In this document: piece by piece, positions 233 through 48,600 of the stretch
Numbering within the stretch: the first letter of the stretch is position 1
Layout of the letters: each line of letters opens with the position of its first letter
From: Candidatus Parcubacteria bacterium
GTDB lineage: Bacteria > Patescibacteriota > Saccharimonadia > UBA4664 > JBIOIQ01
Direction of reading: 5' to 3'
DNA length: 49,832 bases
NCBI GenBank assembly: GCA_963718875.1
Contig: OY970378.1
Location: forward strand, 820,433-870,264
Notes under the pieces: model-generated
Database searches by the model: none
What the model saw: only the letters and a program-made list of their open reading frames with translations
What the model was told of the DNA's origin: nothing
Made by a program: the position numbers and the translations under genes

Positions 233-1243
233 CTAAAAAGATGGTGGGCTAGTCAAGGGGAGTTTAAGGACAAAAGTTGATCCTTTTTCAATACTGCTTT
301 TTACGTCAATTACGCCGCTGTGCAGTTCGGCAATTTTCTTAGCAATCGAAAGCCCCAGCCCATAGCCTTCTGACTGAAGTTTAGAGCGGGAAGTCTCGGC
401 CCGATAAAAGCGGTCAAAAATATGAGTGATATCTGATGGCTCGATTCCGACACCGTAATCACGTATGCTTACTAAAGCAGTTTTACCGTGGCTGGTTTCA
501 GTAATTTCAATTTTTGAACCAGTTGGGCTATATTTAATTGCATTGTCTAAAAGTATTACAACCAGTTCGACAAGGCTTTCGAAATCGCCCTTTACTTTGG
601 CGCTAGTGGTGCTGATCTCAATAATAATATTTTTTTGTTTGGCTGCACGGACTAAACGTTTATGAGATTCTTTGACGACCTTCGCCAAATCTATTATTTC
701 TTTAGAAAAATCTTTGTCTTCTTGTTGTGCCAGTTTCAACAAGCCATCGGACAGAGCTCGGAGTTTAGCCACTTCTTCAAGGTTACTTTGTAGCAGCTGC
801 CTGGCTTCATCAGTACTAAGGGAGTTGTTGCGCAAAGCCACTTCAATTTCAGTCTGCATTGCGGTAAGCGGTGTACGCAACTCATGCGAAGCATCAGCGG
901 TAAATCGACTTTGACGTTCGATACTCTCTTCAATGGGGGCTAAAGTACGGCGGGCCAAGAGATAGCTGGCCGCCCCTCCTGCCAAAAGAGTAGCGATATT
1001 AAACATCAATAAATTTTGCTTGAGTCGTCCCTGCTCCTCCGCTAATTGCCCCGCTCGAAATTCCTGGATTGTGGAGAACTCACGGGGTAAGAGGGAGATG
1101 CTTATGTATGCGCCTTGTCGTCGTAAGCTGCGATTGATCTCATCGCTCGATATGTGATACAAAATCACGCTAAAGCCGATAGATAGTATCATTATTAAAC
1201 CTAGATACCACAGTGTGAGAGTAGCCACCGCCGAGCGGATCAT
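233..1243 (-). CDS. Sensor histidine kinase (two TM helices, HisKA + HATPase_c)
   Basis: 336-aa ORF with H-box SHELRTPL, N-box DNAIKYS, G1 RDYGVGI and G2 GYGLGLSIAK. Its ATG overlaps the upstream regulator stop as ATGA. Confidence 0.9.
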   Translation of the reverse strand: MIRSAVATLTLWYLGLIMILSIGFSVILYHISSDEINRSLRRQGAYISISLLPREFSTIQEFRAGQLAEEQGRLKQNLLMFNIATLLAGGAASYLLARRTLAPIEESIERQSRFTADASHELRTPLTAMQTEIEVALRNNSLSTDEARQLLQSNLEEVAKLRALSDGLLKLAQQEDKDFSKEIIDLAKVVKESHKRLVRAAKQKNIIIEISTTSAKVKGDFESLVELVVILLDNAIKYSPTGSKIEITETSHGKTALVSIRDYGVGIEPSDITHIFDRFYRAETSRSKLQSEGYGLGLSIAKKIAELHSGVIDVKSSIEKGSTFVLKLPLTSPPSF

Positions 1244-1923
1244 GTTTTTGCAACGCCTAATTTATAACCGAATCCGCGCATGGTATGGATTAAGTCTGGC
1301 CCTCTAAAAGGCTTGTCGATCTTGTTGCGTAGGTAGCCAATGTAAACCTCAACCGTATTGGGTAAAATATCGGCATCGTAATCCCAAACATGGGCAATAA
1401 TATTATTTTTAGTAAGGGTTTGGTTCTGATTACGCATCATATACTCTAGCAACGCGAATTCCTTTTGCGATAAAGCAATGTCGCGACCAGCTCGCTTTAC
1501 TTCAAAATTAACAATATCCAGTGATAGGTCATCACAGATTAAGGTCGTGCCAACACTATCGTAAGGTCTACGCAGTAAAGCTCTGGTCCGCGCCAGCAGC
1601 TCTTCAAAGGCAAATGGTTTGACCATATAGTCATCGGCGCCCGCATTTAAGCCTTCTACTTTGTCTTTAATCTGGCCTCTGGCGGTCAATAATAACACCG
1701 GCGTATGAATTTGATGGGCGCGCATTTCTTTTACAATGTCTACTCCCTCGATCAAGCCCGGAAGCATGCGATCCAGAATAACCATGTCGTAATCTTCCGT
1801 TGTCGCCAAACTAACCCCTTCTTCGGCGTCGTATGCAACATCAACTGCGTAGGACTCCTGCTCCAAGCCTTTTTTTATAGCGTTGGCAATTTTGTGTTCG
1901 TCTTCAACGACTAAGATCCTCAT
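1240..1923 (-). CDS. OmpR-family response regulator (receiver + winged-helix)
   Basis: 227-aa ORF. N-terminal MRILVVEDE...DLVILD-type receiver with KPF motif. C-terminal trans_reg_C-like LSQKEFALLEYM...RGFGYKL. Has a 4-nt overlap with the kinase gene. Confidence 0.92.
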   Translation of the reverse strand: MRILVVEDEHKIANAIKKGLEQESYAVDVAYDAEEGVSLATTEDYDMVILDRMLPGLIEGVDIVKEMRAHQIHTPVLLLTARGQIKDKVEGLNAGADDYMVKPFAFEELLARTRALLRRPYDSVGTTLICDDLSLDIVNFEVKRAGRDIALSQKEFALLEYMMRNQNQTLTKNNIIAHVWDYDADILPNTVEVYIGYLRNKIDKPFRGPDLIHTMRGFGYKLGVAKT

Positions 1924-2126
1924 AGGTTTAAATTATAACCCTTAGTTGAGAGATGGCTGAAATCGGGGTTCTGTCTACTAAACCGGAACAGCCGAACTTT
2001 TAAGTAATGTAAAGAGATTTTGGCGGCTTTTTAATGGCTGGGCTCTCTTAATAAGATCGGCAATCATCACCAATACCATTTCTAAAACGTGTCGACCATA
2101 CGCATCCAGTTGTGATGTTTTAGTTA

Positions 2127-2320
2127 GGTACCACCAAACTGTCAGTAGTCAGAGTGCTATCGTCGGCAGCCAAAGGGATTATAAGCTACCCTTGCTATAA
2201 AGCTTAGGCTTTAACGCAAATGAACTTGAGATATCCCAAAAACGACATAAAACACATCAAGTGGCCTTAGGTGCGTCTCTAGAACTAAAAATAAAAAGTA
2301 CTGACAGTTTGGTGGTACTT
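2127..2320. repeat. Palindrome-bounded ~190-nt intergenic element, copy 1 (candidate structured RNA or hairpin-ended element)
   Basis: Perfect 20-bp inverted repeat 2128-2147 / 2299-2318 enclosing 151 nt with no credible ORF. A paralogous element lies at 10426-10617. Confidence 0.6.
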
Positions 2321-2429
2321 AGCTGAATCAAGGTGAGATGGCAGGGCACCATTGCATCATTACTTAATGGTTGCCTGAATCTCGGCATGTCCCTCCCAGG
2401 GATAGATTCTGGCAGTACATTAGCTACAC

Positions 2430-2726
2430 TTGCCACTCGACAAAGGAATAAACTTGAGAATACGCGCATGGCTTGTTGTGGCTGCTGTGGTGGCCTTGAT
2501 GTCGGCTATCGTGGTTATCACCTATGTATCCGGAGCTGACCGAACCAGCACAGTAATCGTCAGTGGGCTGGAGGACTCTGAGGTGCTATGTCCCAACAAC
2601 ATCCCGCGAACCGAGATGATTTGTCTAAGTTCGAGCTTGATCGAAGAGAACTTCAATGCCAATACCTTGAGGGTAAAACTTCGCGAATCTCCGTGGCCCT
2701 ATAATCGAAACGGGCGACTTGCCTAA
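2430..2726 (+). CDS. Hypothetical small membrane-anchored protein
   Basis: 98-aa ORF (TTG start in the track, other starts possible) with one clear TM helix AWLVVAAVVALMSAIVVITYV. An intrinsic terminator follows about 25 nt downstream. No recognisable family. Confidence 0.4.
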   Translation: MPLDKGINLRIRAWLVVAAVVALMSAIVVITYVSGADRTSTVIVSGLEDSEVLCPNNIPRTEMICLSSSLIEENFNANTLRVKLRESPWPYNRNGRLA

Positions 2727-2748
2727 TCTTCACCCTATAAAACGCCGA

Positions 2749-2797
2749 GGGACGGCGGCACGTGTCCGTCCCGCGCCGCCCGCAAGGGTGGCTTTTT
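2749..2797. terminator. Double-hairpin, probably bidirectional intrinsic terminator between convergent genes
   Basis: Stem GGGACGG/CCGTCCC (2749-2755/2766-2772), then GCCGCCC-GCAA-GGGTGGC (2775-2792) followed by TTTTT on the plus strand. On the minus strand the first hairpin is followed by a T-run after a short spacer. Confidence 0.55.
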
Positions 2798-2853
2798 ACT
2801 GTCTTTGGGTCTTGATTGAATGTTCAGCGAACTATTATAGGATTGCGGGCATA

Positions 2854-4143
2854 TTAGCGCCTCTGCATCAGGTACATAGTGCGCTGGCTACTCTCGACTG
2901 GTTTTTGCTCAAGAATCTTAAATTGCATAGAAAAGGCTTTTTCAAAATTGAGTTGATCATAATCTGTAAAAATGTCTGGACGAGTAGAAAGCAAAATTTG
3001 AACCTTGGAGTCGTCCTTGGGAATGAATTCGATAATTAAGTACTCCCCTAACTTGGCAAAATATTCAGCTATCAATCCAAAAGGAAGATTGTTGGCAATA
3101 GCAAGATGATGGACTAACGCCAGTGCCATTACCGTATTATGCTCGCCTGCCCGGTCGGCTAGACTATCGCGCTCGACATTGGCCCATCCTATCCCCGGAC
3201 TGGGATTAGTTAAGTCAGATCGTAAAGGAAGTAAGTTGGTAAGCTTTTGTCCACGGACCATATGATAGCTTTTTTCAACCGCAATTGGGTCGATATCAAA
3301 GCATACTGCCTGCCCTGCCCCTGCCGCGAGGGCTACTTTACTAAAAGTACCATCATTTCCGCCTAGGTCCCAAACAGCTGACGGTTTAATGTGCTCAATG
3401 TACTTACCCACTAATTGTTTTTTATGCTCGAAAGCTTTTTTTGAATAGTTAGTATCATCGTAATACTCCCCCCATACTGTTTGAATTTTGGCAGAAAGCT
3501 TCAGGTTTTTTATGGCCCTTTCCAAGCTGTCGGTTAGACCTAGCAGGGCCCGTTTGTTAGTGGGGCTAGCTTGGGCCTGGATACTCTGGGAAGAAACGGC
3601 CGGGCTGGCGCTGCGTCTACCCGCCGCATTGTGCCATATAAGGTGCAGTAGCAATCCGGCTTTAAGTTTTTTTCTGGCAGGCAATAGCTTGACTGCTAGC
3701 TCTAGCGGAATACCGTCAATAAAGTCCCTTAGCATGAGGTTCATCCGCAAGTCCACCGTAGACATGAGCGCCAACGGTGCCAAAAAATGTTGACAAAACT
3801 GTTGGTAAGCCGCCCAAACTTTTTGTCCAGCATAAGGCTTAAATGATAGAGTGTCGATTAATATTGGTTGGCCGTTTAAAAACTGGATGTTGTAAGCGGA
3901 GGCATCTTTTAGAATTAGGCCGCTATCTAGGGCTTTTTTTTGAATGGCCAGAGTGATTAAGGCAGCGTCTTTGAGCTGAGAAAATGACCATTCATATGGA
4001 TATGAGATAAAAGGGATTTGTTGGGGCAGAATAAGCTTGTAAGTATTGTCTGGAGCATCGTAAGCTTTAATTTTGTCAATTTCCTGATGCGAAACTAACA
4101 AATTAGCTTTTTGTAGTTCGTCATAAAGGCCTGAGCCCATCAA
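2854..4143 (-). CDS. Class I SAM-dependent methyltransferase (true start may lie upstream, see findings)
   Basis: 429-aa ORF with SAM-binding motif VWDLGGNDGTF and motif II CFDIDP. The frame remains open 48 codons upstream of the annotated TTG/ATG. Confidence 0.8.
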   Translation of the reverse strand: MMGSGLYDELQKANLLVSHQEIDKIKAYDAPDNTYKLILPQQIPFISYPYEWSFSQLKDAALITLAIQKKALDSGLILKDASAYNIQFLNGQPILIDTLSFKPYAGQKVWAAYQQFCQHFLAPLALMSTVDLRMNLMLRDFIDGIPLELAVKLLPARKKLKAGLLLHLIWHNAAGRRSASPAVSSQSIQAQASPTNKRALLGLTDSLERAIKNLKLSAKIQTVWGEYYDDTNYSKKAFEHKKQLVGKYIEHIKPSAVWDLGGNDGTFSKVALAAGAGQAVCFDIDPIAVEKSYHMVRGQKLTNLLPLRSDLTNPSPGIGWANVERDSLADRAGEHNTVMALALVHHLAIANNLPFGLIAEYFAKLGEYLIIEFIPKDDSKVQILLSTRPDIFTDYDQLNFEKAFSMQFKILEQKPVESSQRTMYLMQRR

Positions 4144-4284
4144 GCTAGTGTAGTCTTCTTGGCCAGACAGTGTTACAACGCGGTAATTTTTCCCTTGTGA
4201 ATTTATTATAAAACCAGCCGGGTCACGGAAAGAAGAGGCCTGTCTGCGCGGTTCGGCTGTTGGCTCATGAGGTGTTATCGAAAA

Positions 4285-4289
4285 CTCCT
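4285..4289 (-). promoter_or_regulatory. Candidate Shine-Dalgarno (AGGAG) 6 nt upstream of an ATA codon in the methyltransferase frame
   Basis: The minus strand reads TAGGAG-TTTTCG-ATA. There is no ATG/GTG/TTG in the 48 open codons upstream of position 4143. Confidence 0.3.
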
Positions 4290-4467
4290 AACTCTCACCA
4301 TCTGGCTTATTGCCTTGACGACTAGAAACCACCGACTTAATACCGGTGAGAACGCGCGCAAAATACTTACGTCCTACATAGGCTGCCCCCAAAAAGCCAC
4401 CCAATAAGGCCTGTATAACTACGCTGCCCGTACCCGGATCGAGGTAGGCAAGATGAAAAATAATCAT
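4288..4467 (-). CDS. Small membrane protein, 59 aa (below the ORF-track cutoff)
   Basis: Hand translation: MIIFHLAYLDPGTGSVVIQALLGGFLGAAYVGRKYFARVLTGIKSVVSSRQGNKPDGES. It has one hydrophobic helix and an LDPGTGS motif that I recall from small proteins encoded next to transferase genes (from memory). Confidence 0.45.
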   Translation of the reverse strand: MIIFHLAYLDPGTGSVVIQALLGGFLGAAYVGRKYFARVLTGIKSVVSSRQGNKPDGES

Positions 4468-4687
4468 GTTACTTAATTTACCTTTTACTAATATTTATAA
4501 AAACTATAAATCACTAAGCTTAGAATCTGCTTGTGCACAATTATGCTTGGTTTATTCTATCATAACTAAAGCTTACTCCTTGGGTTGTTTCGGTTGCTTT
4601 GGTTTTTTCTTCTTTTTCTCGCCCTTACTTTTGTCGCCCATAGTGCCCTCTTTTTTGCTTAATTACTTCTTAAAACTATAACATAGT

Positions 4688-5251
4688 CTAGCCTCTAGTG
4701 AGCTTGTCGCCGTCCTTAACCTCGGTGATACCTAATTTCTGCTCCAGATAGACAACCGTCGGTAAATTGAGCAAATGAAACTTTACGCTATATTGATTCA
4801 GCTTAAGCCCGATTTCTGGGTTAATCCCTCTTTCAGCAGCCTTCATTATAAACGGCTTGCCCTGGTACTTTTGCAAGAAGGTTTTGGGATCATCAAATAA
4901 AACAAATTCGACGTGCTCAAGTCCTTCACTAAAAATACTCCCAGTTTTAGGCGCGGGCAGCTCCACTGCGTCGATACGCCACCCTAAATGATTTATGGGC
5001 TGATTCAAGCGAAATGTAGATATAGGACGATTGTTGACCATGGTTTCACCCAATAGTTGAGCTAGACTTGATAGCTCTGTTTTCTTTACCTCATAATTTT
5101 GAATTGAGGTGGTGCGATAGCAGATATGGTCAAGTTGCACAAAATCTGTCATTACGAACCCTTGTGCTTTCATGTTGTCTAAAATGGAACTTATAAATGT
5201 CTGGAAGTCGCCGATAGATTTTGTAAGTTGGAGGGCAAAAGTGGCATCCAC
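4688..5251 (-). CDS. yecM: YecM-family VOC-fold protein
   Basis: DHICYR...MVNNRPISTFRLNQPI...WRIDAVELPAP...EGLEHVEFVL parallels E. coli YecM (DHISLRC...MINGRPICLFKL...VELPWP...EGWEHIEIVL, recalled). A GTG at 5251 overlaps the upstream TAG (TAGTG) and gives 187 aa. The ORF track extends to 5311. Confidence 0.8.
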   Translation of the reverse strand: MDATFALQLTKSIGDFQTFISSILDNMKAQGFVMTDFVQLDHICYRTTSIQNYEVKKTELSSLAQLLGETMVNNRPISTFRLNQPINHLGWRIDAVELPAPKTGSIFSEGLEHVEFVLFDDPKTFLQKYQGKPFIMKAAERGINPEIGLKLNQYSVKFHLLNLPTVVYLEQKLGITEVKDGDKLTRG

Positions 5252-5691
5252 TATTTTTTGATCATGAATAAAACTACGCCCGTGGTGAGGGCCCAAGCGT
5301 ACTCCACCCAAATACCACCTCGGCTTTCATGCTGAATGCCTTTGTGAAACTTAAAAAAAGCCCACAATAGCCCTTTGCGGCTCTTCATACGCCATGCAAC
5401 CGGCCACAACAGGTCAGGGGCTAGGGCTGCCACGAAGCAAGCCGTTATAACCGCTGTTAGATCAGGCCAAATCATAACAGCCGCCAAGTACACGGCTACA
5501 CTGAGGGTTGCATCGAGCGCAATTTTTGGCCAAAACTTGGAGCTGTTGTGCTCAAACTCCATATCATTTCCATGGTGGGGAATTACATCGAGTACAAAAT
5601 GCGATATAAAAGCCAGCGGTGCAGCTATTTGGGGTTGTTTTACCGTAACTGCAATTAATACGGCGGTAGTTGTGTGGTTTAATCCAAGCAT
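5251..5691 (-). CDS. Polytopic membrane protein, possibly a DUF457/YdjM-like metal-dependent hydrolase
   Basis: 146-aa ORF with 4 predicted TM helices and a His/Asp-rich SHFVLDVIPHHGN motif. The family assignment is tentative. Confidence 0.5.
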   Translation of the reverse strand: MLGLNHTTTAVLIAVTVKQPQIAAPLAFISHFVLDVIPHHGNDMEFEHNSSKFWPKIALDATLSVAVYLAAVMIWPDLTAVITACFVAALAPDLLWPVAWRMKSRKGLLWAFFKFHKGIQHESRGGIWVEYAWALTTGVVLFMIKK

Positions 5692-5745
5692 TAATACACT
5701 CTCTTTATAGTTATACTTACAATATTCGAATAGTACCTTTTATAA

Positions 5746-7254
<1,509 letters not shown>

Positions 7255-8611: not shown

Positions 8612-10255
8612 TTAGTATTTCCATTTCTGATTTGGCCCGCCGTTGCAGTCCCAGAGCTGGATTTGAGCGCCAGGGTTAAAGTTGATATCTTTGATATCTA
8701 GACATTTCTTTAGTCCGGCTATACCAAGTCCAGTTGGAGTAATTGTGTTGTCCGAATTCATGCGCCATTTTTGATGAGGGCTATTGGGGACACACGCCCA
8801 GATTTGAATTTTATTGCCATTGGCTAAACTTCCCCCCGGCACATCTAGACATCTTGAGCCGTAAATTGTAATTGTACCGTTTTGTAGAAATGACCATTTT
8901 TGATTAATTTGGTTATTGCAACCCCAAAGAATTAGCTTGGTACCACTTCTGGTATCGTTACCTGGCACATCTAAACAAAGGCCTTGATTGTTGGGTCCAG
9001 GTTGGTTCACTACTGAGATAGTTTTACTAAAAGCCTGTGTTTGGGTAGTAGTAGTCGTCGGAGAATTCGGTAAGATGACAGGTTGGGCGGCGCACGGCCC
9101 AAAGCTACTACCCACTAACTTATTGCCTCCTGCCCCAATGTTTATACCAAAGGTACTGACGTTATGTTTAACACCATTTCGGTACATAGCAGGAATGGGC
9201 CAATCAAAACGGTGCGTACCCGCTGTGGGGGCGTTAGGCAGATTGCCGTTATTGTTAATGTCTGGGCTGGCTACGCTAGTGGCGCCTGTGTTATATCCAG
9301 CACCATCAATATAGACATGGACCTGGATGTTAGCATTGGGACTGTCAGGATCGTAAGCCCAACCCTTAACTCGTTGACAACTAACTTCGTCAACCACCAT
9401 CTGAGGATCGTGGTTGACTACGGTTTGAGTGGGTGTAGTCGCCACAACAGGAGCTGCGCAAGGTCCAAAGCTACTACCCACCACTGTGTTTTCACCAGTA
9501 CCAATATTTATAGCGAAAGTGCTGACATTATGACGGGCTCCATCAAGGAAACGGGCAGGAATGGGCCAATCAAAACGGTGCGTACCCGCCGTGGGAGCGT
9601 TAGGTAGATTACCATTATTGTTAATGTCTGGACTGGCTACGCTAGTGGCGCCAGTGTTATATCCAGCACCATCAATATAGACGTGGACCTCGATGTTGGT
9701 GTTGGGACTGTCAGGATCGTAAGTCCAGCCCTTAACTCGTTGGCAACTAACTTCGTCAACGATCATTTGTGGGTTTTGAGTCGGGGCAGGTTTTGGGGTG
9801 GCTACCGTACTAGAGCGGTAAACTCGCGCTGCTTCTTCCCCGCACTCAGGCCAGGGACCAAGTCCGGCATCGAGGAAATAGGCATAAGCGGCCTGGTCCT
9901 GAATGGTAGGAGGTGCATCCGAGGGTACCCATCCTTTGTAAGGATCTGGAGCATATGCGGACCAACTTTCTCGAGCAAATTGATAAGCGCCGTAGTATCC
10001 ATTCCCGGTGTTAATAGTATAGTTGTTTCCGCTTTCACATTGTTTCAATGGAGGGGCAAGTATAACCCAGGCTTGAGGTGTCCTTGGTATGTCGCCCGTG
10101 TAGGCAAGGATTATTGCGACAAAGGCGGCAAATACAGCCACAAACCCTGACGTTACAAACCATTGTTTGCGGTTAAACTGACGGAAGTTAAGGACTTTTG
10201 GACTTGCGAATTTTGAAATAATTTGACTAAGTTTTGATGGTTGCTTAGGCGCCAT
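8612..10255 (-). CDS. Membrane-anchored Rpf-like transglycosylase + two 106-aa repeat domains + ricin-B (beta-trefoil) lectin
   Basis: 547 aa with an N-terminal TM. CESGNNYTINTGNGYYGAYQF matches the Rpf transglycosylase-like signature. It has two GW(A/T)YDPD repeats. The C-terminus carries three QxW motifs (NQKWSF, HQKWRM, NQKWKY). Confidence 0.85.
   Translation of the reverse strand: MAPKQPSKLSQIISKFASPKVLNFRQFNRKQWFVTSGFVAVFAAFVAIILAYTGDIPRTPQAWVILAPPLKQCESGNNYTINTGNGYYGAYQFARESWSAYAPDPYKGWVPSDAPPTIQDQAAYAYFLDAGLGPWPECGEEAARVYRSSTVATPKPAPTQNPQMIVDEVSCQRVKGWTYDPDSPNTNIEVHVYIDGAGYNTGATSVASPDINNNGNLPNAPTAGTHRFDWPIPARFLDGARHNVSTFAINIGTGENTVVGSSFGPCAAPVVATTPTQTVVNHDPQMVVDEVSCQRVKGWAYDPDSPNANIQVHVYIDGAGYNTGATSVASPDINNNGNLPNAPTAGTHRFDWPIPAMYRNGVKHNVSTFGINIGAGGNKLVGSSFGPCAAQPVILPNSPTTTTTQTQAFSKTISVVNQPGPNNQGLCLDVPGNDTRSGTKLILWGCNNQINQKWSFLQNGTITIYGSRCLDVPGGSLANGNKIQIWACVPNSPHQKWRMNSDNTITPTGLGIAGLKKCLDIKDINFNPGAQIQLWDCNGGPNQKWKY
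9089..9772 (-). repeat. In-frame tandem duplication of a 106-aa domain (period 122 aa / 366 nt)
   Basis: aa 162-267 and 284-389 are near-identical (PQM(I/V)VDEVSCQRVKGW(T/A)YDPDSPN...GSSFGPCAA). Confidence 0.9.
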
Positions 10256-10425: not shown

Positions 10426-10617
10426 GGTACCGCCTTTAGGACAGTAGTCAAGGTGCAGAGAAGTAAGTTCGTAGGTCTAATCCCAATCCTGGTTCACCTT
10501 AGAGCGTTCTGAGGAAAAATGGGTTCTTAGCGATCAGAAATGCTCCAAAAAGGCTAAATGTGACTGATTCAGCTTGTATGCTTTAAAGTAAGAAGCTACT
10601 GTCCTAAAGGCGGTATA
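10426..10617. repeat. Palindrome-bounded ~190-nt intergenic element, copy 2
   Basis: Perfect 20-bp inverted repeat 10428-10447 / 10596-10615 enclosing 148 nt. It shares GGTACC...CAGTAGTCA with copy 1, with compensatory arm differences. Confidence 0.6.
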
Positions 10618-10800
10618 TGCTTAATAAAGCTACGGGTTGATCGCTCGTTTTATAAAATAGAGATTTTTATAGCGTTTTTTGCAGCAGGCAGAAGTATTTA
10701 CGGATACTAAATATACCAAAAGACTTGAAGATGGCCAATGTAGTGGAACAGTTTACGAGAGATCTGTATAAGGAGCACCCTGCCTGTTTATCAATAACCC

Positions 10801-32029: not shown

Positions 32030-33052
32030 TTAACGCTTGCGACGGGCTTTGGCAATAATGCGCCGGTTGTAGCCACGGATCATAGTGCGTAGGCCGAAGA
32101 AGAGCAGTATCAGGGCAAACAAGACGAGTAGTATCAATTTGTACGGAATTACCCAAAACCCAATACTTGCAGTTAGTGGTGTATTGGCATCACCGTATAC
32201 CAGATCAAGCCGTGCACGATAATGACCGAACAGCCACTTCTTGGTCCACTCACCTTCAAACCGTCGTATACTGCCAGGTAGTACGTTACGGGCTTTTGCG
32301 TTGGCGTCTAGAGTGGCAACTTTTTTGCCAAATGTATCAAAAATCTGGACTTTTCCAGTCGGCTTAACATGCACGGTGCCTGTATTTTGAAGCCTTTCAG
32401 TAAAGGTTAACGGCCCGGTTTCAAAAAAAGTACCCCGTTTTTCGCCTTGACGAATAAAGAATTCAGCTACGGCTAGTTTTTGCGTTTGTGGACCTGAAAC
32501 ATTCAACAAAATTAATGCACCGATACTAGCTTTTAGCGCCACACCGGTGCCTTCAAGTTCTGGCGGTGTACCAGTAAAGCGGACTACTCCATAATGCCCC
32601 CCTGGTTCAGCGTTTTTTGGTACGACAATGCGTATGGAGGCTGTCTTAATTTCGCGCGGGACGAGTTGGAATGATGGAACGCTGGGAATCCAAAATTTTA
32701 ACGAATACCTGGTGGCTTCAGTTTGGTCCAGCAAAATTTTTGGATTGCCGTTTTCTTCTTCGTCAGCCGTAAAATCATCGGCTTGACCATTAACAACCAA
32801 GGTGGCAGGGGTAATGTTGCGAATTTTAATATTAGCTATGACGGTCTGTCCAGGATCAGCCTTGAGCTCTATTACGGGCGGGGATATTTCTAGCCCTTGG
32901 CCAAAGTCTTGAGTAGGTGGGTTTGTTGCGGGTGGAGTTGCTGCATTAAGCGGAAGCACCCACGAAGTTGCAAGTATTAATCCAAAAACAAGTTGAAGCT
33001 TACGATGCACATGTATCCTGTAATTACTATTAGAAGGTGGCCGTACAAACAT
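32030..33052 (-). CDS. Secreted two-domain protein with a C-terminal TM anchor and basic tail (DUF916/DUF3324-like, CscA-like architecture)
   Basis: 340 aa. Signal peptide, LEISPPVIELKADPGQTVIANIKIRN... and ...VPKNAEPGGHYGVVRF Ig-like segments. C-terminal LILLVLFALILLFFGL + RRIIAKARRKR. Confidence 0.7.
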   Translation of the reverse strand: MFVRPPSNSNYRIHVHRKLQLVFGLILATSWVLPLNAATPPATNPPTQDFGQGLEISPPVIELKADPGQTVIANIKIRNITPATLVVNGQADDFTADEEENGNPKILLDQTEATRYSLKFWIPSVPSFQLVPREIKTASIRIVVPKNAEPGGHYGVVRFTGTPPELEGTGVALKASIGALILLNVSGPQTQKLAVAEFFIRQGEKRGTFFETGPLTFTERLQNTGTVHVKPTGKVQIFDTFGKKVATLDANAKARNVLPGSIRRFEGEWTKKWLFGHYRARLDLVYGDANTPLTASIGFWVIPYKLILLVLFALILLFFGLRTMIRGYNRRIIAKARRKR

Positions 33053-34145
33053 AAGTGAGAGTGGTGGTATAGGTACCAGCGGGTTGACTACCCGCTACGT
33101 TCACTATGTATGAAGCGGTGTAAATTTGAGCGTCGGTGGGTCCAGCGCCACCATTACTAGAATCGGCCACGGTGTTGCCGCTGACGAACTTAAACGTGTC
33201 TACGGCATTATACCCCGTTAGAGGGTTAGCTTTAAAGTTTGTTCCATTGGAGGCCGCTGCAACATCGGCGCCAAAGGCCGGAACAGCGGCGGAGGTAGTG
33301 TTGGCTCTTAAGTTTAAGCCGAACTGACCAGTTCCTTTAACGCTGGTGGATCCACTACCGGCAGATATTCCAGCAATTGTGTTTGCACCAGAGCTCATAG
33401 TAGCACCACTAACGGTAATGGCATAGCCAAACCCAGCATTAGTAGAAGCGGCCATTTGGGAGGTGGTGGTAGAGGTAGTTGCAGGCGAAAATTCTTGGTT
33501 AAAGGTTACTGATCCACTGGTAGCTGTGCTGCAGTCGGGCACTCCGCCGGTAGTAGAGATGGTGCCGCCGGTGCAAAATATGAGTGACTCGGGCATAGTT
33601 CCGGTCAAAGTGATTTGTTGCGCTGTCGACGCCGCAACTGTTCCAAAGTCAGTTACGCCGCCGGTAGTGTCGATGGAGGCATAAGTATTCATACGGACAA
33701 AAAACGTCCCAGGTGCGCCCGTGGGGTTGGTAACAGTGTCCAAGCGGATCGTCACAGCTGTACCAGCCGTAACAGCTGCAGCAGTACGAGTAATATAAGG
33801 TGCGCCGTTAGTAGTATTAACAATTGTAAAGCCGGTGGCACCGGTTTGAGCACCAAGTGTTGCCGAAGTGGATACAAGTCCAGTAGGCATAGTACAGGTG
33901 CCGGAAGCCGTAGTACAATATTCAAATTTAATTGAACCAACGTTGGTATTGCCTACCGATGGCAAGGTGAAACTGAATAAATGGTTTACAACGCCGCCGG
34001 GCTTAGAGCCGCCATCGGTCACACCATTTACCAGCGTTAGGCTGCGGCTGGTGATTTGAGCAGCTGAGACAGGTACAGGTAGCAAGGTAACTGCTAGTAC
34101 TGCAATTAGAAGCCATGTTAACCTTTGCCGAAGATTTAAACTCAT
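33030..34145 (-). CDS. Secreted Thr/Gly/Ala-rich beta protein, paralogue A (WxL-like C-terminus)
   Basis: Start placed at ATG 34145 (MSLNLRQRLTWLLIAVLAVTLLPVPVSA), giving 371 aa; the ORF track extends to 34277. About 85% identical by eye to the next gene. Ends AGTYTTTLTYVCTATF. Confidence 0.75.
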   Translation of the reverse strand: MSLNLRQRLTWLLIAVLAVTLLPVPVSAAQITSRSLTLVNGVTDGGSKPGGVVNHLFSFTLPSVGNTNVGSIKFEYCTTASGTCTMPTGLVSTSATLGAQTGATGFTIVNTTNGAPYITRTAAAVTAGTAVTIRLDTVTNPTGAPGTFFVRMNTYASIDTTGGVTDFGTVAASTAQQITLTGTMPESLIFCTGGTISTTGGVPDCSTATSGSVTFNQEFSPATTSTTTSQMAASTNAGFGYAITVSGATMSSGANTIAGISAGSGSTSVKGTGQFGLNLRANTTSAAVPAFGADVAAASNGTNFKANPLTGYNAVDTFKFVSGNTVADSSNGGAGPTDAQIYTASYIVNVAGSQPAGTYTTTLTYVCTATF

Positions 34146-34467
34146 ATATTTCCACTCACAAATAATACTTATATATAAGTTAGCATAAGCATCATGCGCT
34201 TGTAAATGGTTTTTTTTAATGGAAAATAGAATTGTGCAGTTTATTAGACCTCTTTCCAAACCCTCCCGTTTTTGCAAACTCGTTTATTGGGCAATCTATC
34301 GGCTTTTTACTTTTCAAGGTAGTACTATGGCTATCTCTCGTCGTAAGAAAGCCACTATATTGCAACTAAAACGAGTTTTCGGATTTTTTGAGGGGGTTTG
34401 GAAAGAGGTCTAATGGCTTTATTACGCTGGAACAAGTATGTTCTTAAGCTCAATTTAAAGTTACAGT

Positions 34468-35613
34468 CTAGAAGGTGGCAGTGCAAACGTAGGTAAGAGT
34501 GGTGGTGTAGGTACCGGCGGGCTGACTACCAGGTACATTCACTATGTATGAAGCGGTGTAAATTTGGGCGTCGGTTGGGCCCACGCCACCGTTGCTGGAG
34601 TCGGCCACGGTGTTGCCACTGGTAAACTTAAATGTATCAACAGTATTGTAGCCTGCTAGTGGGTTAGCTTTGAAGTTGGTTCCATTGGACGCAGCAGCAA
34701 CATCGGTACCAAATGCTGGTACAGCAGTAGCGGTTGTGTTGGCCCTTAGGTTCATACCAAACTGGCTAGAGTTTTTTACGCCTACACCGGCCGTACTCAT
34801 AGCGGTAATTGTGTTTGCGCCAGACGTCATAGTGGTACCGCTAACGGTAATGGAATAGCCAAAGCCAGCATTAGTAGAGGCAGCCATCTGTGAAGTGGCG
34901 GTGGCGGTAGTGGTTGGGGAAAATTCTTGGTTAAAGGTTACGGATCCACTAGTGGCAGTTGTACAATCCGGCACACCACCAGTCGTCGAGACAGTGCCCC
35001 CAGTACAGAATACTAGGGACTCGGGCATAGTTCCGGTCAAGACAATTTGGGTGGCGGTTGATGCAGCCACCGTACCTGAGTCGGTAACACCACCAGTGGT
35101 GTCGGTTGAGGCATAAGTGGTAATGCGGACAAAAAAAGTGCCGACGGTGGTGGGGTTGGTAACGGCGTCAAGGCGAATTGTTACTGCAGTGCCGGCTGTT
35201 ACAGCTGCTGCCGTACGTGTTACATGAGGCGAGCCGTTGGTAGTATTATCGATAGTAAATCCAGTAGCACCAGTTTGAGCTCCTAGCGTGGCAGCGGTTG
35301 TAGTCAACCCTGTTGGGGTTGTGCATGTATTTGTAGCGGTGGTGCAGTACTCGAATTTGATTGAGCCAACATTTGTGTTTCCTACTGAAGGTAAGGTAAA
35401 GGCAAATAAGTGATTTACTGACCCACCCGGCTTGGAGCCCCCGTCTGTTACTCCATCGACAAGCGTTAGACTGCGGCTAGTTATTTGAGCTGCAGAAACA
35501 TTTACAACTGGAAGTAGTAATGTCAGCGTTAATACGGTCGCGGCTATTCTAGCAACGTTAATTTTTATTTTTTCCAAATACCCCTCCAAATTGTTTGTGT
35601 TTTTTATTTTCAT
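34468..35613 (-). CDS. Secreted Thr/Gly/Ala-rich beta protein, paralogue B
   Basis: 381 aa with a signal peptide ending NVSA. It shares six conserved Cys and an identical C-terminus with paralogue A. Confidence 0.75.
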   Translation of the reverse strand: MKIKNTNNLEGYLEKIKINVARIAATVLTLTLLLPVVNVSAAQITSRSLTLVDGVTDGGSKPGGSVNHLFAFTLPSVGNTNVGSIKFEYCTTATNTCTTPTGLTTTAATLGAQTGATGFTIDNTTNGSPHVTRTAAAVTAGTAVTIRLDAVTNPTTVGTFFVRITTYASTDTTGGVTDSGTVAASTATQIVLTGTMPESLVFCTGGTVSTTGGVPDCTTATSGSVTFNQEFSPTTTATATSQMAASTNAGFGYSITVSGTTMTSGANTITAMSTAGVGVKNSSQFGMNLRANTTATAVPAFGTDVAAASNGTNFKANPLAGYNTVDTFKFTSGNTVADSSNGGVGPTDAQIYTASYIVNVPGSQPAGTYTTTLTYVCTATF

Positions 35614-35686
35614 AGCTTTTAACTAAGATCTGTTTAAGACATTACCATAAGCGCTTTCATAGTGTCAACGCTTTTTTTCAACGTTT

Positions 35687-36406
35687 CTAATAGGTACCTG
35701 TACATATGAGGGTGTGGGAGGTTGAATATTGGCCGCCTGGAGTGGTAGTAGTGGCGTTTAACAGGTAGGAGATGGTAAAAATGGTTTGTCCTGAACTTTT
35801 AGGCGCCGAGGCAATTGTACTGTTGTTGGCGTACTTGTAATTATTGGCGGTATTGTACCCTGAGGCTGCTACTCCGTACCCAAACACAGGAGTTCCGTTA
35901 TTGGGGTTTGCGCCCACGCTAACTGGCGAAGTATTGGCCACCAAGTTAATGCCGTACTGTTCCGTCCCCGCTTGAGATGGGGTTGGCGAACTAAGGGCTG
36001 GGATAACGTGACTGCCATTGCTAGGCGGAGAGCCAATAATTTGCACAACGTAACCAAAGCTAGTGTAGTTGATGACGCTAAAAGTCGAAGTAGCGGTGGC
36101 GGCAGCGGTGGCGGATAAGTCGTTAAATACTGTTTGCGCCGAGGGTACTATAAAAGTCAGAGCCGGATCATTGGTGGTAGTGTAACCAGAGTTGGTTTGA
36201 AAATTAGCGGAGCTGGATTCACCTATACCAAGATCGCCAATTGATTCAGCAGCGCTAAAGCTGGGTGAAGACTCTGTTATTAACCCTCCCCCACCAATAA
36301 AACTTTCGTCCACTTGAAAATTGTTTGACTTGAGAGTTTCGGCATGGACGCTGGGTATTACAAGCGCAACTGCTAAAAAGCAGATTAAAAACCACCATTT
36401 TGACAT
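35687..36406 (-). CDS. Smaller secreted protein of the same cluster (related C-terminal motif ...TLICTGTY)
   Basis: 239 aa with signal peptide ...SVHA. Repeated S-x-N-F-Q motifs. The C-terminus GGQYSTSHTLICTGTY parallels AGTYTTTLTYVCTATF. Confidence 0.7.
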   Translation of the reverse strand: MSKWWFLICFLAVALVIPSVHAETLKSNNFQVDESFIGGGGLITESSPSFSAAESIGDLGIGESSSANFQTNSGYTTTNDPALTFIVPSAQTVFNDLSATAAATATSTFSVINYTSFGYVVQIIGSPPSNGSHVIPALSSPTPSQAGTEQYGINLVANTSPVSVGANPNNGTPVFGYGVAASGYNTANNYKYANNSTIASAPKSSGQTIFTISYLLNATTTTPGGQYSTSHTLICTGTY

Positions 36407-37566: not shown

Positions 37567-37575
37567 TAACTCTCA

Positions 37576-37656
37576 CGAATTATGAATTAGGAATTAAGAA
37601 TAATGGCCACTGATTCGCCCCATACTTAATTCATTATTCCTTATTCTTTATTCGCA
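37576..37656. repeat. AT-rich imperfect-hairpin repeat, copy A (left flank of the GC-rich islet)
   Basis: CGAATTATGAATTAGGAATTAAGAATAATGG...ATACTTAATTCATTATTCCTTATTCTTTATTCGCA is a direct repeat of 38257-38336. Confidence 0.8.
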
Positions 37657-37748: not shown

Positions 37749-38123
37749 CTAAGATGCGACCCTGGAGAGTAGTTTGCGCAGCCTGTACGGACGCCTGTAG
37801 GCGGACATCCCGTCCCAACTGGTAGCCCATTCTTCGGGCGACCAAGAAAAGACGTTTGCTGTGTCGCGACTGCAGATGACTAAACCCTCCTCTCGGAGAG
37901 CCTGAAGCGCCTCTGCCACTTCCGGTCCACTACGCTTGATGTACCTAGCGATGGCGCTAGGCTTCATCGGGTCGAGCCCAGAGTTCTGCAACTCCCGAAG
38001 CACTCGGAGCTTGATCTTCTTATCCTTGCTCCAGAAGATGCTCCGCCACCCCAACGAGGGGCGGAAGAGGAAGTACACCATGGCTCCCCACAGGAGCGAC
38101 CACAGTATTAACTGCCTGGTCAT
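37749..38123 (-). CDS. Small membrane-anchored putative winged-helix protein in a GC-rich islet
   Basis: 124 aa. N-terminal TM LILWSLLWGAMVYFLF, then KLRVLRELQNSGLDPMKPSAIARYIKRSGPEVAEALQALREEGLV, which is wHTH-like. GC content is visibly higher than in the flanking DNA. Confidence 0.5.
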   Translation of the reverse strand: MTRQLILWSLLWGAMVYFLFRPSLGWRSIFWSKDKKIKLRVLRELQNSGLDPMKPSAIARYIKRSGPEVAEALQALREEGLVICSRDTANVFSWSPEEWATSWDGMSAYRRPYRLRKLLSRVAS

Positions 38124-38256
38124 TTCGAATCTCCTTGGTCGTTTTGGGTACGAGCGGATGCTGCCGTAAAATCAGATCCTTCTGATTTCTCGGAAGATCT
38201 ACGTATCATAGCATAAGTGGTATTAAAAGTCAAACGACGACACACGGCAACTTTTG

Positions 38257-38336
38257 CGAATTAAGGATTAGGAATTAGGAATAAATGACTGCTTGGGAGA
38301 TGCCTCTCATACTTAATTCATTATTCTTTATTCGCA
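38257..38336. repeat. AT-rich imperfect-hairpin repeat, copy B (right flank of the GC-rich islet)
   Basis: CGAATTAAGGATTAGGAATTAGGAATAAATG...ATACTTAATTCATTATTCTTTATTCGCA. The right half is identical to copy A apart from a 6-nt indel. Confidence 0.8.
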
Positions 38337-44463: not shown

Positions 44464-45120
44464 TTATACACGCATTTGGCGTGGATTTACGATACCGACA
44501 TCACTAGAATTAAACTCAAGAGGTTGATCCTCTTGAAATCCAGCCCTGGCTTTGCAGTAGTCCATGTAGTTTTCGATGCCATCGAAAGAGTCGATAATGG
44601 TGCCAGCAGAAAGCCAATTCGGGCTAAACCCCCCTGTATAGAACTTCAGGCTTGAGTAGGGATATTTAAGACATACTCCTAAGTCCATAGTGTTTGGATT
44701 TAGATGAATATAACTGGAAATATCAAGTAAATAAGGTTGGTTCTCTATTAGAGAGCCTTTGTATATCCCCTGAAATAAAGGTCCTACTCTCCTATACTTG
44801 AGATTAAAGTACATTGCGTAACCGGTCATGATTCGACGCATGAAGTCAGTGAGTCCGCTTTGCGTTTTTTGTTTGACTAGTAGATGAAAATGATTTGGCA
44901 TCAAGCAAAAAGCCAATAATTCTATTTGATCGTTTAGCTTAGGGTAGCAAACGCCGGCGCTATCAAATCGATCTTCAGCGCCAAGGTAGATATCGAAATA
45001 CTTCATAAAACGGATGTAATCAGCTCGGTTTAAGAATACTCGCCTTTTCTCGACTCCTCGGTTGTAAACATGGTAAATTCCACCTTCTAAATACTTTTTG
45101 ACTGTATTGGCGCTTGGCAT
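44464..45120 (-). CDS. IS200/IS605-family Y1 (HUH) transposase, RayT/REP-associated-like
   Basis: 218 aa with HUH motif MPNHFHLLV and catalytic Tyr context SSYIHLNP. The N-terminus is GIYHVYNRG. Confidence 0.85.
   Translation of the reverse strand: MPSANTVKKYLEGGIYHVYNRGVEKRRVFLNRADYIRFMKYFDIYLGAEDRFDSAGVCYPKLNDQIELLAFCLMPNHFHLLVKQKTQSGLTDFMRRIMTGYAMYFNLKYRRVGPLFQGIYKGSLIENQPYLLDISSYIHLNPNTMDLGVCLKYPYSSLKFYTGGFSPNWLSAGTIIDSFDGIENYMDYCKARAGFQEDQPLEFNSSDVGIVNPRQMRV
44515..44535. repeat. Hairpin motif CTCAAGAGGTTGATCCTCTTG (left copy, inside the 3' end of the transposase ORF)
   Basis: Exact reverse complement of 45166-45186. Each copy folds as a 7-bp stem CAAGAGG/CCTCTTG. Confidence 0.9.
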
Positions 45121-45165
45121 AGATTCAACTTACGGTATTTGTTCGGTATGTGCAAGCATTAGCGG

Positions 45166-45186
45166 CAAGAGGATCAACCTCTTGAG
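45166..45186. repeat. Hairpin motif CAAGAGGATCAACCTCTTGAG (right copy, upstream of the transposase start)
   Basis: Exact reverse complement of 44515-44535. Confidence 0.9.
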
Positions 45187-45188
45187 CC

Positions 45189-45682: not shown

Positions 45683-48600
45683 TTAATTTAGATTCATAAC
45701 CGTATACAGCGAGCGACCACAGTTTACCGGTGAACCGGCCACTCCAGCCGTACAGGCTGTACCAGGAAAGGCCACCCGGGTATAACCGGCATAAGCATAT
45801 AGGGCGCTAATTGTAGCACTAAATGACGCACCACCGTTACAAGCATTGCCAAGCCCCGTACAGTTAATGGTGCCAGTAGCAGGAGCGGCTACTGTCACGG
45901 CATACCCGGCCGTAGTGGCTCCGCTTTGAATAAATGCATTCGCCGAACCGGCCGTTGCTTTAATGTAAGCCGAGCCGCTAGTTGCAATAATGCCCGAAGG
46001 AGCGTTACTGACGCTAGCTGCGCCACTCGAGGCGACTACCACTCCGCGTAAAGATAATCCGGCTGTTGCGCCTGCCGTCGCCACGCCGTTTCCGCTCGAC
46101 ACCACTAGTTGTCCAATACCCAGGGCAGCGGCGCTAGTGGTGTATTCTTTTTGAGAAGTCGTAAAGGTGCGGGTATCGTAAACCGCTGTCAGAACAGCCG
46201 AGCCGTTGGTGCCTCTAACGTCGGCGATACATAAAGCTGGATTTGCCGCATCCCAGGCCGGAAAACCACCGATTTCTGGAGCAGGGGCCGTCAAGCTAAG
46301 CGCCCCGGAAGTATCGAAACAGACGTGCTGGAATATGTTAGTCGTCGTCATACTCGACAAGGTCAAAGTGGTAGCGCTGGCTACGATTACCTTGCGGCCG
46401 CGGCTATAGGCCACACAAGGCTGAACTACGACCTGGCTAGTAGAAGAAGTAGATGCCGAAACCCTGCATGGACCGGTTACGGCAGCGGTTTGTACGCTGG
46501 GCAAATCACCTGGGTTAGACCCAGAATCTGGCACCACACCATAGAGCAAGACGCCCATACCTCCCGTCGTCATAACATCTTCCCATGCGCTATTGATACA
46601 ACCACGAATCGCGTTGGTGTTGGTGTTGTAGTAAATGGCGCCTTGGTTAGTCGTAGCATTACATGTACCTGTATCGGCAAATGTCGAGAATGAATCCAGC
46701 TGCAACAAAACTTGAGTTGTGTCCGTAGCAGCAGAGCCGACAATCAATTTATCGTTGACTGTATCGACCGTGAAAATAGACCTGCCAGTTGCATCTTGGA
46801 TTTGAAAGTTAGTAGTAGAATCATTTGCGTTACGCACATTCACCGGCGAGGTAATCGTAGCGTTAAACGATATACCCCCGGCACCGTAGCCTGTCGCCAC
46901 CGATCCCAGCTCCACCTGCACCGAATCAATATAAAAGGTGTGCGCCGTAGCACCGGTTTGCTTAATGATAATGTAGGCGTTGGCTGCTGGCACAGTCCCA
47001 TCAGTTGCAATCGTACAGCTAAATCTGGTCCAGCCGCCGCTAATCACCGTCTGAGTTACCAGCCCGGTACAAGCCGTTGTGTCGGTCGCGCCGTCTCGTC
47101 CGTAGGCCGCCGTAATGTCAGTAAACGCTGCGCTAGCCACATCTAGCCTAGCGTACCAACTTAAGGTATAAGTAGCACTAGTTGCCAGTGCCGGTACTGC
47201 CGGGTTGCCGTTTGCCAGTGTAAACTTGGCTCCGTTATTAGCATTAGCGCTCGTCACAACCTTAAGCGCATAGCTTCCTGTATACGAGGTTGAGCTGTCT
47301 CTGATCACACTACCCGGTGTGCCGCTGTATGTCCAGCCGTTAGGCGTTACTTCAAAGCCGGCGTTGCCAGCCATAATATTTATATCGGTCGTTTCGACTG
47401 TAAAAAGATTTGCTCCTTTCGAAGTTAAAACTTGAAACGCCGTCGTCGAATTGCTGGTGTTTTGTATCGTCAGCGGCGAAGTAATTGAACCCTGCAAACT
47501 TATTTGGCCTTCTCTGTAAGCCGGCGTAAAGTTGGCCTCTGTTTGTAGTATCACCGCATCAATATTAATAGAGTTTCGGGCCACGGCGTCGGTTTGCCTG
47601 ACGTATATGTAGGGGCTACCCGAAACCGTGCCAGTCAAAAAGGTACAGGTGTAGCGTGTCCAACCGTTTTTAGCCACTGTTTGCGCACTTAAGCAGGCAG
47701 TATCGGCACTGCCATTTTCACTGCGGCCAATCTCTAGCGTGCTCATATTCCCGGCCGACGACCTAGCGTATAGGCTCATGGTGTAGGTAGTGGCGCTGAC
47801 CAAACTAACGTTTTGCCTAGCACCATCACCCGTGGTAGTAGTAATTATCTTTAATGAATTATTCCCGTAATATTTATCGCTAGAATCCTGCGAAACCGTA
47901 GCTGAGCCTTTAAGTGCCCAGTTACCAGATATGGCCGATTCCACACTAGGGTTGGTCACCAAGTTATTACTATTATTAGCCGTGGTATCAACATTAATCA
48001 GCGCCGCTCCAGCCTGGTTTTGGACTTGAAAAGCCGTCGTTGAGTTGGCGGCATTTTTGAACAGTGCTGAGTTGTTAACTGTTAAAGCTCCTGTAGTCGT
48101 TAATGCGCCCCCTGTAGTTAATATTCCCGTACCAGTGTTTATTGATCCGTTGCCAGTAGTCTGAACCGATAACGTATTAGCTCCAATGTCCCAAGTACTA
48201 GGAGCTGCACCAGTCAAGTTCAATGCTCCTGCTGAAGTAATTGCCAGTGTTCCAGATGTTGTAGTTGAAACCGATAGCGGGCCCGACGCCACCGTCATCG
48301 TTAAGCCGCCAGTACTAGGTCCGGTGATAGTCCGGGCAGCAGTACCAGAAAAGGTAACGTTGCCGCCTTGTGTTAGCAACCCTGTACCGGTAGTTATGGC
48401 ACCGTTACCAGTCGTTTGCAATGACAACAAGTTGTTGCCTATGTCCCAAGTACTAGGAGCTGCTCCAGTGAAGTTTAAAGCTGCAGCTGAATTAAGAGCT
48501 AGGGTACCCGCAGTCGTGGTAGATAAAGTTAATGGACCCGAAGCAACGGTAGTAGTCAGGCCTCCTGTGCTTGGCCCAGTAATAGTGCGAGCAGCTGTAC

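Follow-up and report, generated by a model that had tools for sequence, protein, structure and literature searches.

Two short elements of about 190 bp, each closed by a perfect 20-nt inverted repeat and each located in intergenic, non-coding DNA next to a gene, are present in a 49.8-kb stretch of DNA (49,832 nucleotides, hereafter the window) from a CPR bacterium. In each arm, two invariant boxes enclose a 7-nt block that is the same in both arms of one locus and different between the two loci. By analogy with characterized systems, the elements most resemble a recombinase-served invertible switch with locus-specific spacers, which is a known kind of element that is unreported for this phylum in the literature searched. 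Each element is tentatively interpreted here as a short invertible DNA segment (inverton), in which the arms may serve as paired double-stranded recombinase sites.

Anatomy and genomic setting of the two elements

In copy 2, the left arm TACCGCCTTTAGGACAGTAG (10428-10447, plus strand) is separated by a 148-nt interior from its perfect complement, the right arm CTACTGTCCTAAAGGCGGTA (10596-10615, plus strand). In copy 1, the left arm GTACCACCAAACTGTCAGTA (2128-2147, plus strand) and the right arm TACTGACAGTTTGGTGGTAC (2299-2318, plus strand) are separated by 151 nt. Both repeats, which a first-pass annotation had described as perfect, were recovered at 20 nt and 100% identity by a repeat search and by an independent exact scan, and the chance expectation for perfect 20-nt pairs of such kind in the window is about 1.6e-5. 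The repeat of copy 1 can be extended outward to 32 nt at 88% identity (2116-2147 and 2299-2330) through imperfect extensions at 2116-2127 and 2319-2330. In copy 1, a GGTACC begins at 2127, and the left arm of copy 2 is directly preceded by a conserved GG (10426-10427). Avoidance of GGTACC was considered and rejected, as this site is not rare in the window (29 sites counted, 11 expected).

The window contains exactly two occurrences of the left-arm motif GGTACCNCC-N7-CAGTAGTCA, against an expectation of 0.03, and both are on the plus strand, so that the two copies have the same orientation, as had been reported. A gap-free alignment of the two stems contains 19 shared pairs, consisting of 12 invariant pairs and seven that are changed on both sides; no pair is changed on one side only, unpaired or of the G·U type, and G·U pairs are also absent from all 39 pairs of the two stems together. 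The earlier statement that seven differences are all compensated was therefore correct (7/19 double-changed, none broken). From outside to inside, all four arms have in common TACC-R-CC, one G within the variable block and CAGTA. The differences between the copies are an A/G exchange at arm position 7 and six others, out of the seven, in a single 7-nt block (clustering P = 0.004). This block reads TTTAGGA in copy 2 (10435-10441, plus strand; complement TCCTAAA at 10602-10608) and AAACTGT in copy 1 (2136-2142, plus strand; complement ACAGTTT at 2304-2310), and neither version is palindromic. In addition, each arm starts with TACYR and ends with YRGTA, forming a short dyad, TACYR-N9-YRGTA, that spans exactly the perfect repeat.

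Conservation continues for a short distance into the interiors. Besides the preceding GG, the left arms share an inner TCA-NN-GTGC (about 10 nt inside the arm), present as TCA-AG-GTGC at 10448-10456 in copy 2 and as GTCA-GA-GTGC at 2148-2157 in copy 1. The right arms share an inner A-rich AAARTAARAAG (about 12 nt inside the arm), contained in TTTAAAGTAAGAAG (10582-10595) in copy 2 and in AAAAATAAAAAG (2287-2298) in copy 1. Since the left and right inner edges differ, the element is, judged by these sequences, asymmetric and polar. Apart from these edges, the interior of copy 2 (10448-10595, no strand assigned) has no kinship to that of copy 1 (2148-2298, no strand assigned); alignments of the outer flanks, and of the interiors in both possible orientations, are no better than those of shuffled sequence. 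Thus, 12 of the 19 arm positions and about 20 adjoining positions are identical amid flanks and interiors that have diverged to randomness, with every position called conserved resting on n = 2 copies. On these sequence grounds, the two elements are related and the feature is non-random.

On one side, copy 1 borders a response-regulator/histidine-kinase operon (1923<-233), and on the other a SAM-methyltransferase-like gene (4143<-2854); copy 2 is flanked by a gene for a secreted Rpf-transglycosylase/ricin-lectin protein (10255<-8612) and a gene for a Calx-beta protein. The first-pass annotation placed the copies 170-205 nt upstream of minus-strand gene starts, and the measured distances are 173 nt for copy 2 (start at 10255) and 205 nt for copy 1 (start at 1923). 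The interior of copy 1 carries a perfect minus-strand TATAAT (2183->2178) that faces the regulator operon, for which about 0.08 occurrences are expected, so that it is not beyond chance; for copy 2, no good promoter or terminator match was found. An interior small ORF or type I toxin was also considered and rejected, since no shared or plausible ORF is present and none of the candidate ORFs occurs in the protein collection.

The proteins of the source contig, which is 1,189,924 bp long, are singletons at 90% identity, which means that close relatives for comparison hardly exist. The closest relatives of the adjacent methyltransferase are at most 71% identical, and a metagenome scan for this family recovered relatives at 49-54% identity only. 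The best retrievable relative (L094, NCBI GCA_025491075.1) has genes that are about 70% identical and is syntenic over window positions 711-5867. Its spacer between the methyltransferase and regulator genes measures 680 bp, compared with 930 bp here, and contains no TACC...CAGTA element, indicating that copy 1 is not ancient at this locus. Ahead of the response-regulator operon is a -10 box TATAAT (GGGTTATAAT; 1933-1938, minus strand), located 9 nt before the ATG at 1923. It is conserved in L094, and in the alignment conservation reaches up to window position 1967. Copy 1 is therefore outside the regulator promoter and leader. For copy 2 there is no comparator locus, as no orthologue of the Rpf-like gene was found in 5.8 billion clusters.

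A few further observations were made at these loci. In the window (1924-1967) as in L094, the TATAAT precedes the ATG by only 9 nt, which implies a leaderless or nearly leaderless mRNA for the response-regulator operon. Divergent from this operon, at 2454-2726 on the plus strand, is a possible unannotated small membrane protein of 90 aa with an N-terminal hydrophobic helix; its TTG start is preceded at 6 nt by AAGGA, it has no match in the protein collection, and relatives have a non-homologous small membrane ORF at the matching position (L094 2850-3128). The secreted protein encoded at 8612-10255 combines an Rpf-type transglycosylase with a ricin-type lectin, and its best domain matches are in Actinobacteria (Streptomyces). 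Its sequence makes it a candidate for a factor that an epibiont of Actinobacteria directs at its host.

Paired changes and the level of selection

The first-pass annotation had read the paired substitutions as selection on the hairpin itself. This holds in so far as the elements are related and the arms are kept identical within each element while one block varies between the loci. The further step to an RNA or ssDNA hairpin is not established by these data, because both copies are perfect inverted repeats with homologous arms, and any difference between the left arms then necessarily looks compensated. The covariation is thus automatic and adds nothing beyond the statement that the arms are homologous and both repeats perfect, and it cannot separate an RNA or ssDNA hairpin from a double-stranded site that is needed in two identical, inverted copies. 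The absence of G·U pairs, the block-wise nature of the change and the unstructured, unconserved interior point to the level of DNA. By analogy, the layout would agree no less with pairs of recombinase sites, as in invertible switches, than with selection on an RNA or ssDNA hairpin.

A structured RNA, either an sRNA or part of a long minus-strand leader in which the 19-20-bp closing stem is a possible RNase III processing site, is improbable. Whole elements fold better than shuffled sequences (z = -3.8 and -6.6), seven pairs are kept via double changes, and a promoter-like minus-strand site at 10738-10710 would read through copy 2 toward the Rpf-like gene. However, the folding signal comes from the closing stem alone; the interiors by themselves have z-scores of -1.4/-2.2 and +1.6/+0.4 and no common structure. 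An RNA stem also fits poorly with the lack of any G·U among 39 pairs and with changes of which six out of seven fall in one block instead of being scattered. Moreover, the orthologous locus of L094 does not have the element, copy 1 is upstream of the regulator promoter, and no terminator follows either copy. Rfam gave no hit at gathering score in the window and noise only at E <= 5 in both spacers. A known RNA was rejected on the same grounds (no Rfam match at gathering score or E <= 5), with no tRNA or tmRNA found.

A retron was considered as well. Like a retron msr-msd, the elements are units of about 190 nt with complementary ends that differ between units and with a G after the 5' arm. This candidate was rejected despite the a1/a2-like ends, as no reverse transcriptase is encoded downstream or anywhere among the ORFs of the window.

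The perfection of the arms can also arise without selection. Quasipalindrome correction by template switching is an established mutational mechanism that perfects nearby imperfect inverted repeats in one step, and selection is not needed for it. The two elements would then have no dedicated function, being related quasi-palindromes kept perfect by template switching during replication, with the boxes as leftovers of common descent. The absence of the element from L094 is in line with this, as is the fact that no partner protein or transcript was found. Nevertheless, this is a very improbable explanation, since the retention of 12 of 19 arm positions and about 20 adjoining ones amid randomized flanks, together with the clustering of the differences in one block, requires a sequence-specific constraint on the boxes. 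The nearly equal spacer lengths of 151 and 148 nt, despite unrelated sequences, are likewise unexpected for functionless palindromes.

Possible invertible segments or mobile elements

For the inversion reading, we infer from the anatomy of the arms that a recombinase acts on them, that the interior is inverted and that regulation is affected. A site-specific recombinase encoded elsewhere in the genome would recognize both 20-bp arms, with TACC-R-CC and CAGTA as the protein-contact boxes flanking a central crossover spacer, the 7-nt block. Identity of the spacer between the two arms of one switch would be needed to complete strand exchange, while a different spacer at each switch would stop the two loci, 8.3 kb apart, from recombining with each other. 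The left arms are direct repeats at this distance, and an exchange between them would delete the IMP dehydrogenase gene and its neighbours, so that distinct spacers would make functional sense. The spacer model would also account for the seven apparently compensatory changes, and the blocks are non-palindromic, as directional spacers must be. Flipping of the interior of about 150 bp would alter what is read toward the neighbouring genes. Inverted copy 1 would give the junction ...CAGTA|CTTTTTATTT and inverted copy 2 the junction ...CAGTAG|CTTCTTACTT, in both cases from the left flank to the reverse-complemented interior.

Multiple characterized switches are built in a similar way. In Clostridioides difficile, the recombinase-binding boxes of six RecV switches are conserved, and the central spacer is the same in both inverted repeats of a switch and specific to that switch, which has been called a "spacer code" (PMC12282940). 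As in these switches, a motif is common to all inverted repeats here and each locus has its own block; this is an analogy in which the crossover point of the present elements is assumed. The RecV flagellar switch (Cdi4) is a short intergenic segment of 154 bp flanked by 21-bp inverted repeats, and this switch, cwpV and others are located upstream of genes for surface or secreted proteins (PMC5386303), as is the case here. In size, the present elements agree with known switches. The similarity has limits: the variable block is 7 nt here and 6 bp in RecV switches, the conserved half-sites are about 5-7 bp here and about 13 bp there, the arms are perfect here and imperfect there, and the host is a CPR bacterium. 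RecV is encoded elsewhere in its genome; for the present elements, inversion was not observed and no recombinase was found in the window. In Bacteroides fragilis, the recombinase Mpi serves at least 13 scattered switches whose inverted repeats have a common core (PMC5386303). One recombinase, many scattered sites, a core consensus and different interiors are features that fit the two elements, and conserved arms between unrelated interiors and flanks are indeed expected where one recombinase serves different local sequences. On the other hand, Mpi belongs to the serine recombinases and its core is different, and the interiors of its switches carry demonstrable promoters, whereas a -10-like box is present here in copy 1 only and the regulator gene next to it is served by a promoter of its own that lies beyond the element. 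No report of invertons in CPR bacteria was found in the literature searched.

The inversion reading is favored by the perfect, Watson-Crick-only arms of each locus and by the location of six of the seven differences between invariant boxes. In addition, the window is rich in such repeats: perfect inverted repeats of at least 20 nt with a gap of 40-400 nt number three in its 49.8 kb and one in 634 kb of other fetched loci. Against it are the conserved proximal promoter of the regulator operon outside copy 1, the weak symmetry of the two boxes in each arm (5 bp) and the length of the site, since 19-20 bp is short for a canonical tyrosine-recombinase core. The ORFs scanned in the 49.8-kb window include no recombinase gene. 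The second orientation was not seen in the sole other assembly of the organism, the Logan contigs of run ERR12037361, where one contig crosses copy 1 from its left arm through its interior and has the same orientation as the window; this evidence on orientation is for copy 1 only.

The Logan contigs of this run end at about 2304, 2760 and 34369, in or beside inverted-repeat elements, and position 2304 is the first base of the variable block in the right arm of copy 1. These ends could be due to loss of coverage at hairpins or to strain heterogeneity. No conclusion is drawn from them as inversion branch points, since they are not where a k = 31 graph containing two orientations would place them.

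Genes for secreted proteins and two-component systems are kinds that are often phase-variable, and the neighboring secreted wall hydrolase/lectin and sensory system are plausible targets of phase variation. CPR bacteria (Patescibacteria) are ultrasmall epibionts with genomes of about 1 Mb, and to our knowledge almost nothing is known about their gene regulation. If the elements flip, they would be phase-variation switches ahead of a secreted cell-wall hydrolase/lectin and a two-component system, and phase variation of such genes would be a plausible route for an epibiont to vary its engagement with the host. If true, this would also add an independent second case of the recombinase "spacer code", which was proposed for C. 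difficile.

Perfect terminal repeats around a short intergenic unit are also typical of mobile elements. The two copies would then be MITE-like, non-autonomous elements with TA as the insertion site (or TTAG for copy 1), and a transposase supplied in trans would bind the arms as terminal inverted repeats. The Correia elements of Neisseria, for example, are bacterial MITEs with a TA duplication and terminal inverted repeats of about 26 bp. Multiple features are shared with such elements, including the size of about 190 bp, the perfect 20-bp terminal repeats, the intergenic location and a possible TA flank, as the arms can be read as TA|CCRCC...GGYGG|TA. Copy 1 also has TTAG on both sides, the orthologous regulator-methyltransferase spacer of L094 is without the element, and conservation reaches about 10 nt beyond each arm in a manner that differs between left and right, as it does for IS ends. 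This origin is nonetheless unlikely. MITE families have many copies with a common interior, whereas only two copies with unrelated interiors are present here; active copies would share their interior, and decayed copies would lose their perfect arms. There is no reason why a transposase-binding repeat should vary in one block while both ends stay identical. Furthermore, the TA "duplication" is indistinguishable from the palindromic repeat itself, and copy 2 has no other duplication.

Searches for further copies bear on the same question. No solo arm, additional copy, parent IS or DDE transposase was found in the window, and a relaxed core scan of the window returned, above chance, only the four known arms. 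In 185,579 GTDB species genomes, the 17-base left-arm motif gave 10 single chance matches in unrelated taxa, none of which had a partner arm. The two-arm pattern had no match in JGI metagenomes or in IMG/VR, where the left-arm motif alone had one chance match inside a coding sequence, and BLAST against phages and plasmids returned no match to the elements. Should the elements be ordinary MITE remnants, they would be of local interest only.

The Y1 protein and other features of the window

A protein of the Y1/HUH type is encoded in the window, and this raises the question of whether the arms act as single-stranded DNA. As an ssDNA hairpin substrate, the paired arms would form a 20-bp stem resembling a site for recombination or nicking, to be recognized by a structure-specific enzyme of the HUH/Y1 or integron-integrase-like type. 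The gene (44464-45120, minus strand; 218 aa) matches Pfam Y1_Tnp with 35.5 bits (cut-off 23) and is packed tightly between genes on the same strand, with repeat-free flanks of 23 and 68 nt. The names of its protein homologues are Saccharimonadales, Saccharibacteria and WS5. Relatives have a dispersed repeat unit on the flanks of their Y1 genes (L096, L094), so this family is repeat-associated in the lineage. The perfect Watson-Crick pairing and the same orientation of both copies would suit an ssDNA hairpin, and the combination of two conserved boxes with a varying but always paired block follows the logic of attC sites. An attC site consists of an R box, a spacer and an L box with a variable loop, and its structure is conserved rather than its sequence.

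Despite these similarities, recognition as ssDNA is quite unlikely. A loop of about 150 nt, which is longer than an entire attC site (57-141 bp), makes hairpin formation inefficient. The arms have no extrahelical bases, no R''/R' cores and no GTTRRRY/RYYYAAC cores and are not attC sites, and no cassette array, IntI or other integrase was found in the window. The link to REP elements that had been proposed through the GTAG tetranucleotide is not supported either. REPs are local hairpins of about 20-40 nt with GTAG on the 5' side, which occur in many copies and flank a rayT gene. GTAG and a Y1/HUH protein 34 kb away are present here, while the other REP traits are not: the arms are not local REP-like hairpins, GTAG occupies the top of the stem instead of a place 5' to the hairpin, and the protein scores 36.9 bits against REP_Tyr_transpos (NF047646), well below the RayT cut-off of 80, with no flanking repeats or hairpins at its gene. 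The repeat unit of the relatives is also absent from the window.

This unit was examined in related CPR contigs. It is about 35 bp long, has the form CACAAGTTCAACTTG-N5-GGTATGCTTATGCTTGG, contains a 13-mer palindrome and is present on both sides of a Y1_Tnp gene (L096 1-32 and 651-707). It recurs in the methyltransferase-regulator spacer of L094 (2591-2747), which is a REPtron-like arrangement. In the window, it is represented by a degenerate remnant only, upstream of the Y1 gene (45121-45188). The 10-mer TATATGCTTA is common to the right boundary of copy 2 (10609-10625) and the unit (L096 13-25); this match was noticed post hoc and may be due to chance. A link between the two elements and the unit was rejected, as the unit is absent from the window and this 10-mer is all that they have in common.

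It would be a long shot to assign the elements to a class of CPR modules, so far undescribed, whose DNA (or RNA) forms hairpins or cruciforms. In such modules, the two fixed boxes would present a freely programmable 7-nt paired block to a structure-specific enzyme, such as the widespread CPR Y1/HUH protein, and the role of the block would be that of an address or specificity code and not of a crossover spacer.

A third perfect long-range inverted repeat is present at 34243-34414, with 21-nt arms ATTAGACCTCTTTCCAAACCC and GGGTTTGGAAAGAGGTCTAAT and a gap of 130 nt. It contains a nested, imperfect 31-nt repeat (34276-34306 and 34348-34378) and a 28-aa ORF with a Shine-Dalgarno-like AAGG in its interior, and it has no sequence similarity to copies 1 and 2. 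Located between two tandem pilin paralogues, with a CPR Pam-pilin-like gene (33030-34277, minus strand) immediately downstream, it may be another switch or a foldback element. The paralogues (33030-34277 and 34468-35613) are 70-81% identical in DNA and are part of a CPR-type pilus locus (33030-36406) with a PamT equivalog (285 bits) at 35687-36406. The Pam pilin C-terminal domain was found in the first paralogue, and the second matched DUF2808 only.

Other repeats were observed in the second half of the window. A 36-nt direct repeat, AACTCTCACGAATTATGAATTAGGAATTAAGAATAA, is present in two versions that are 83% identical (37568-37603 and 38249-38284), located around a small HTH-regulator gene (37749-38123). 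At 48116-49690, six tandem repeats of 255 nt (66-71% identical) are located inside the gene for a CBM_4_9 protein of 1363 aa. Two more giant surface-type proteins are encoded, one of 1601 aa with Kelch repeats and one of 2357 aa with CBM_4_9.
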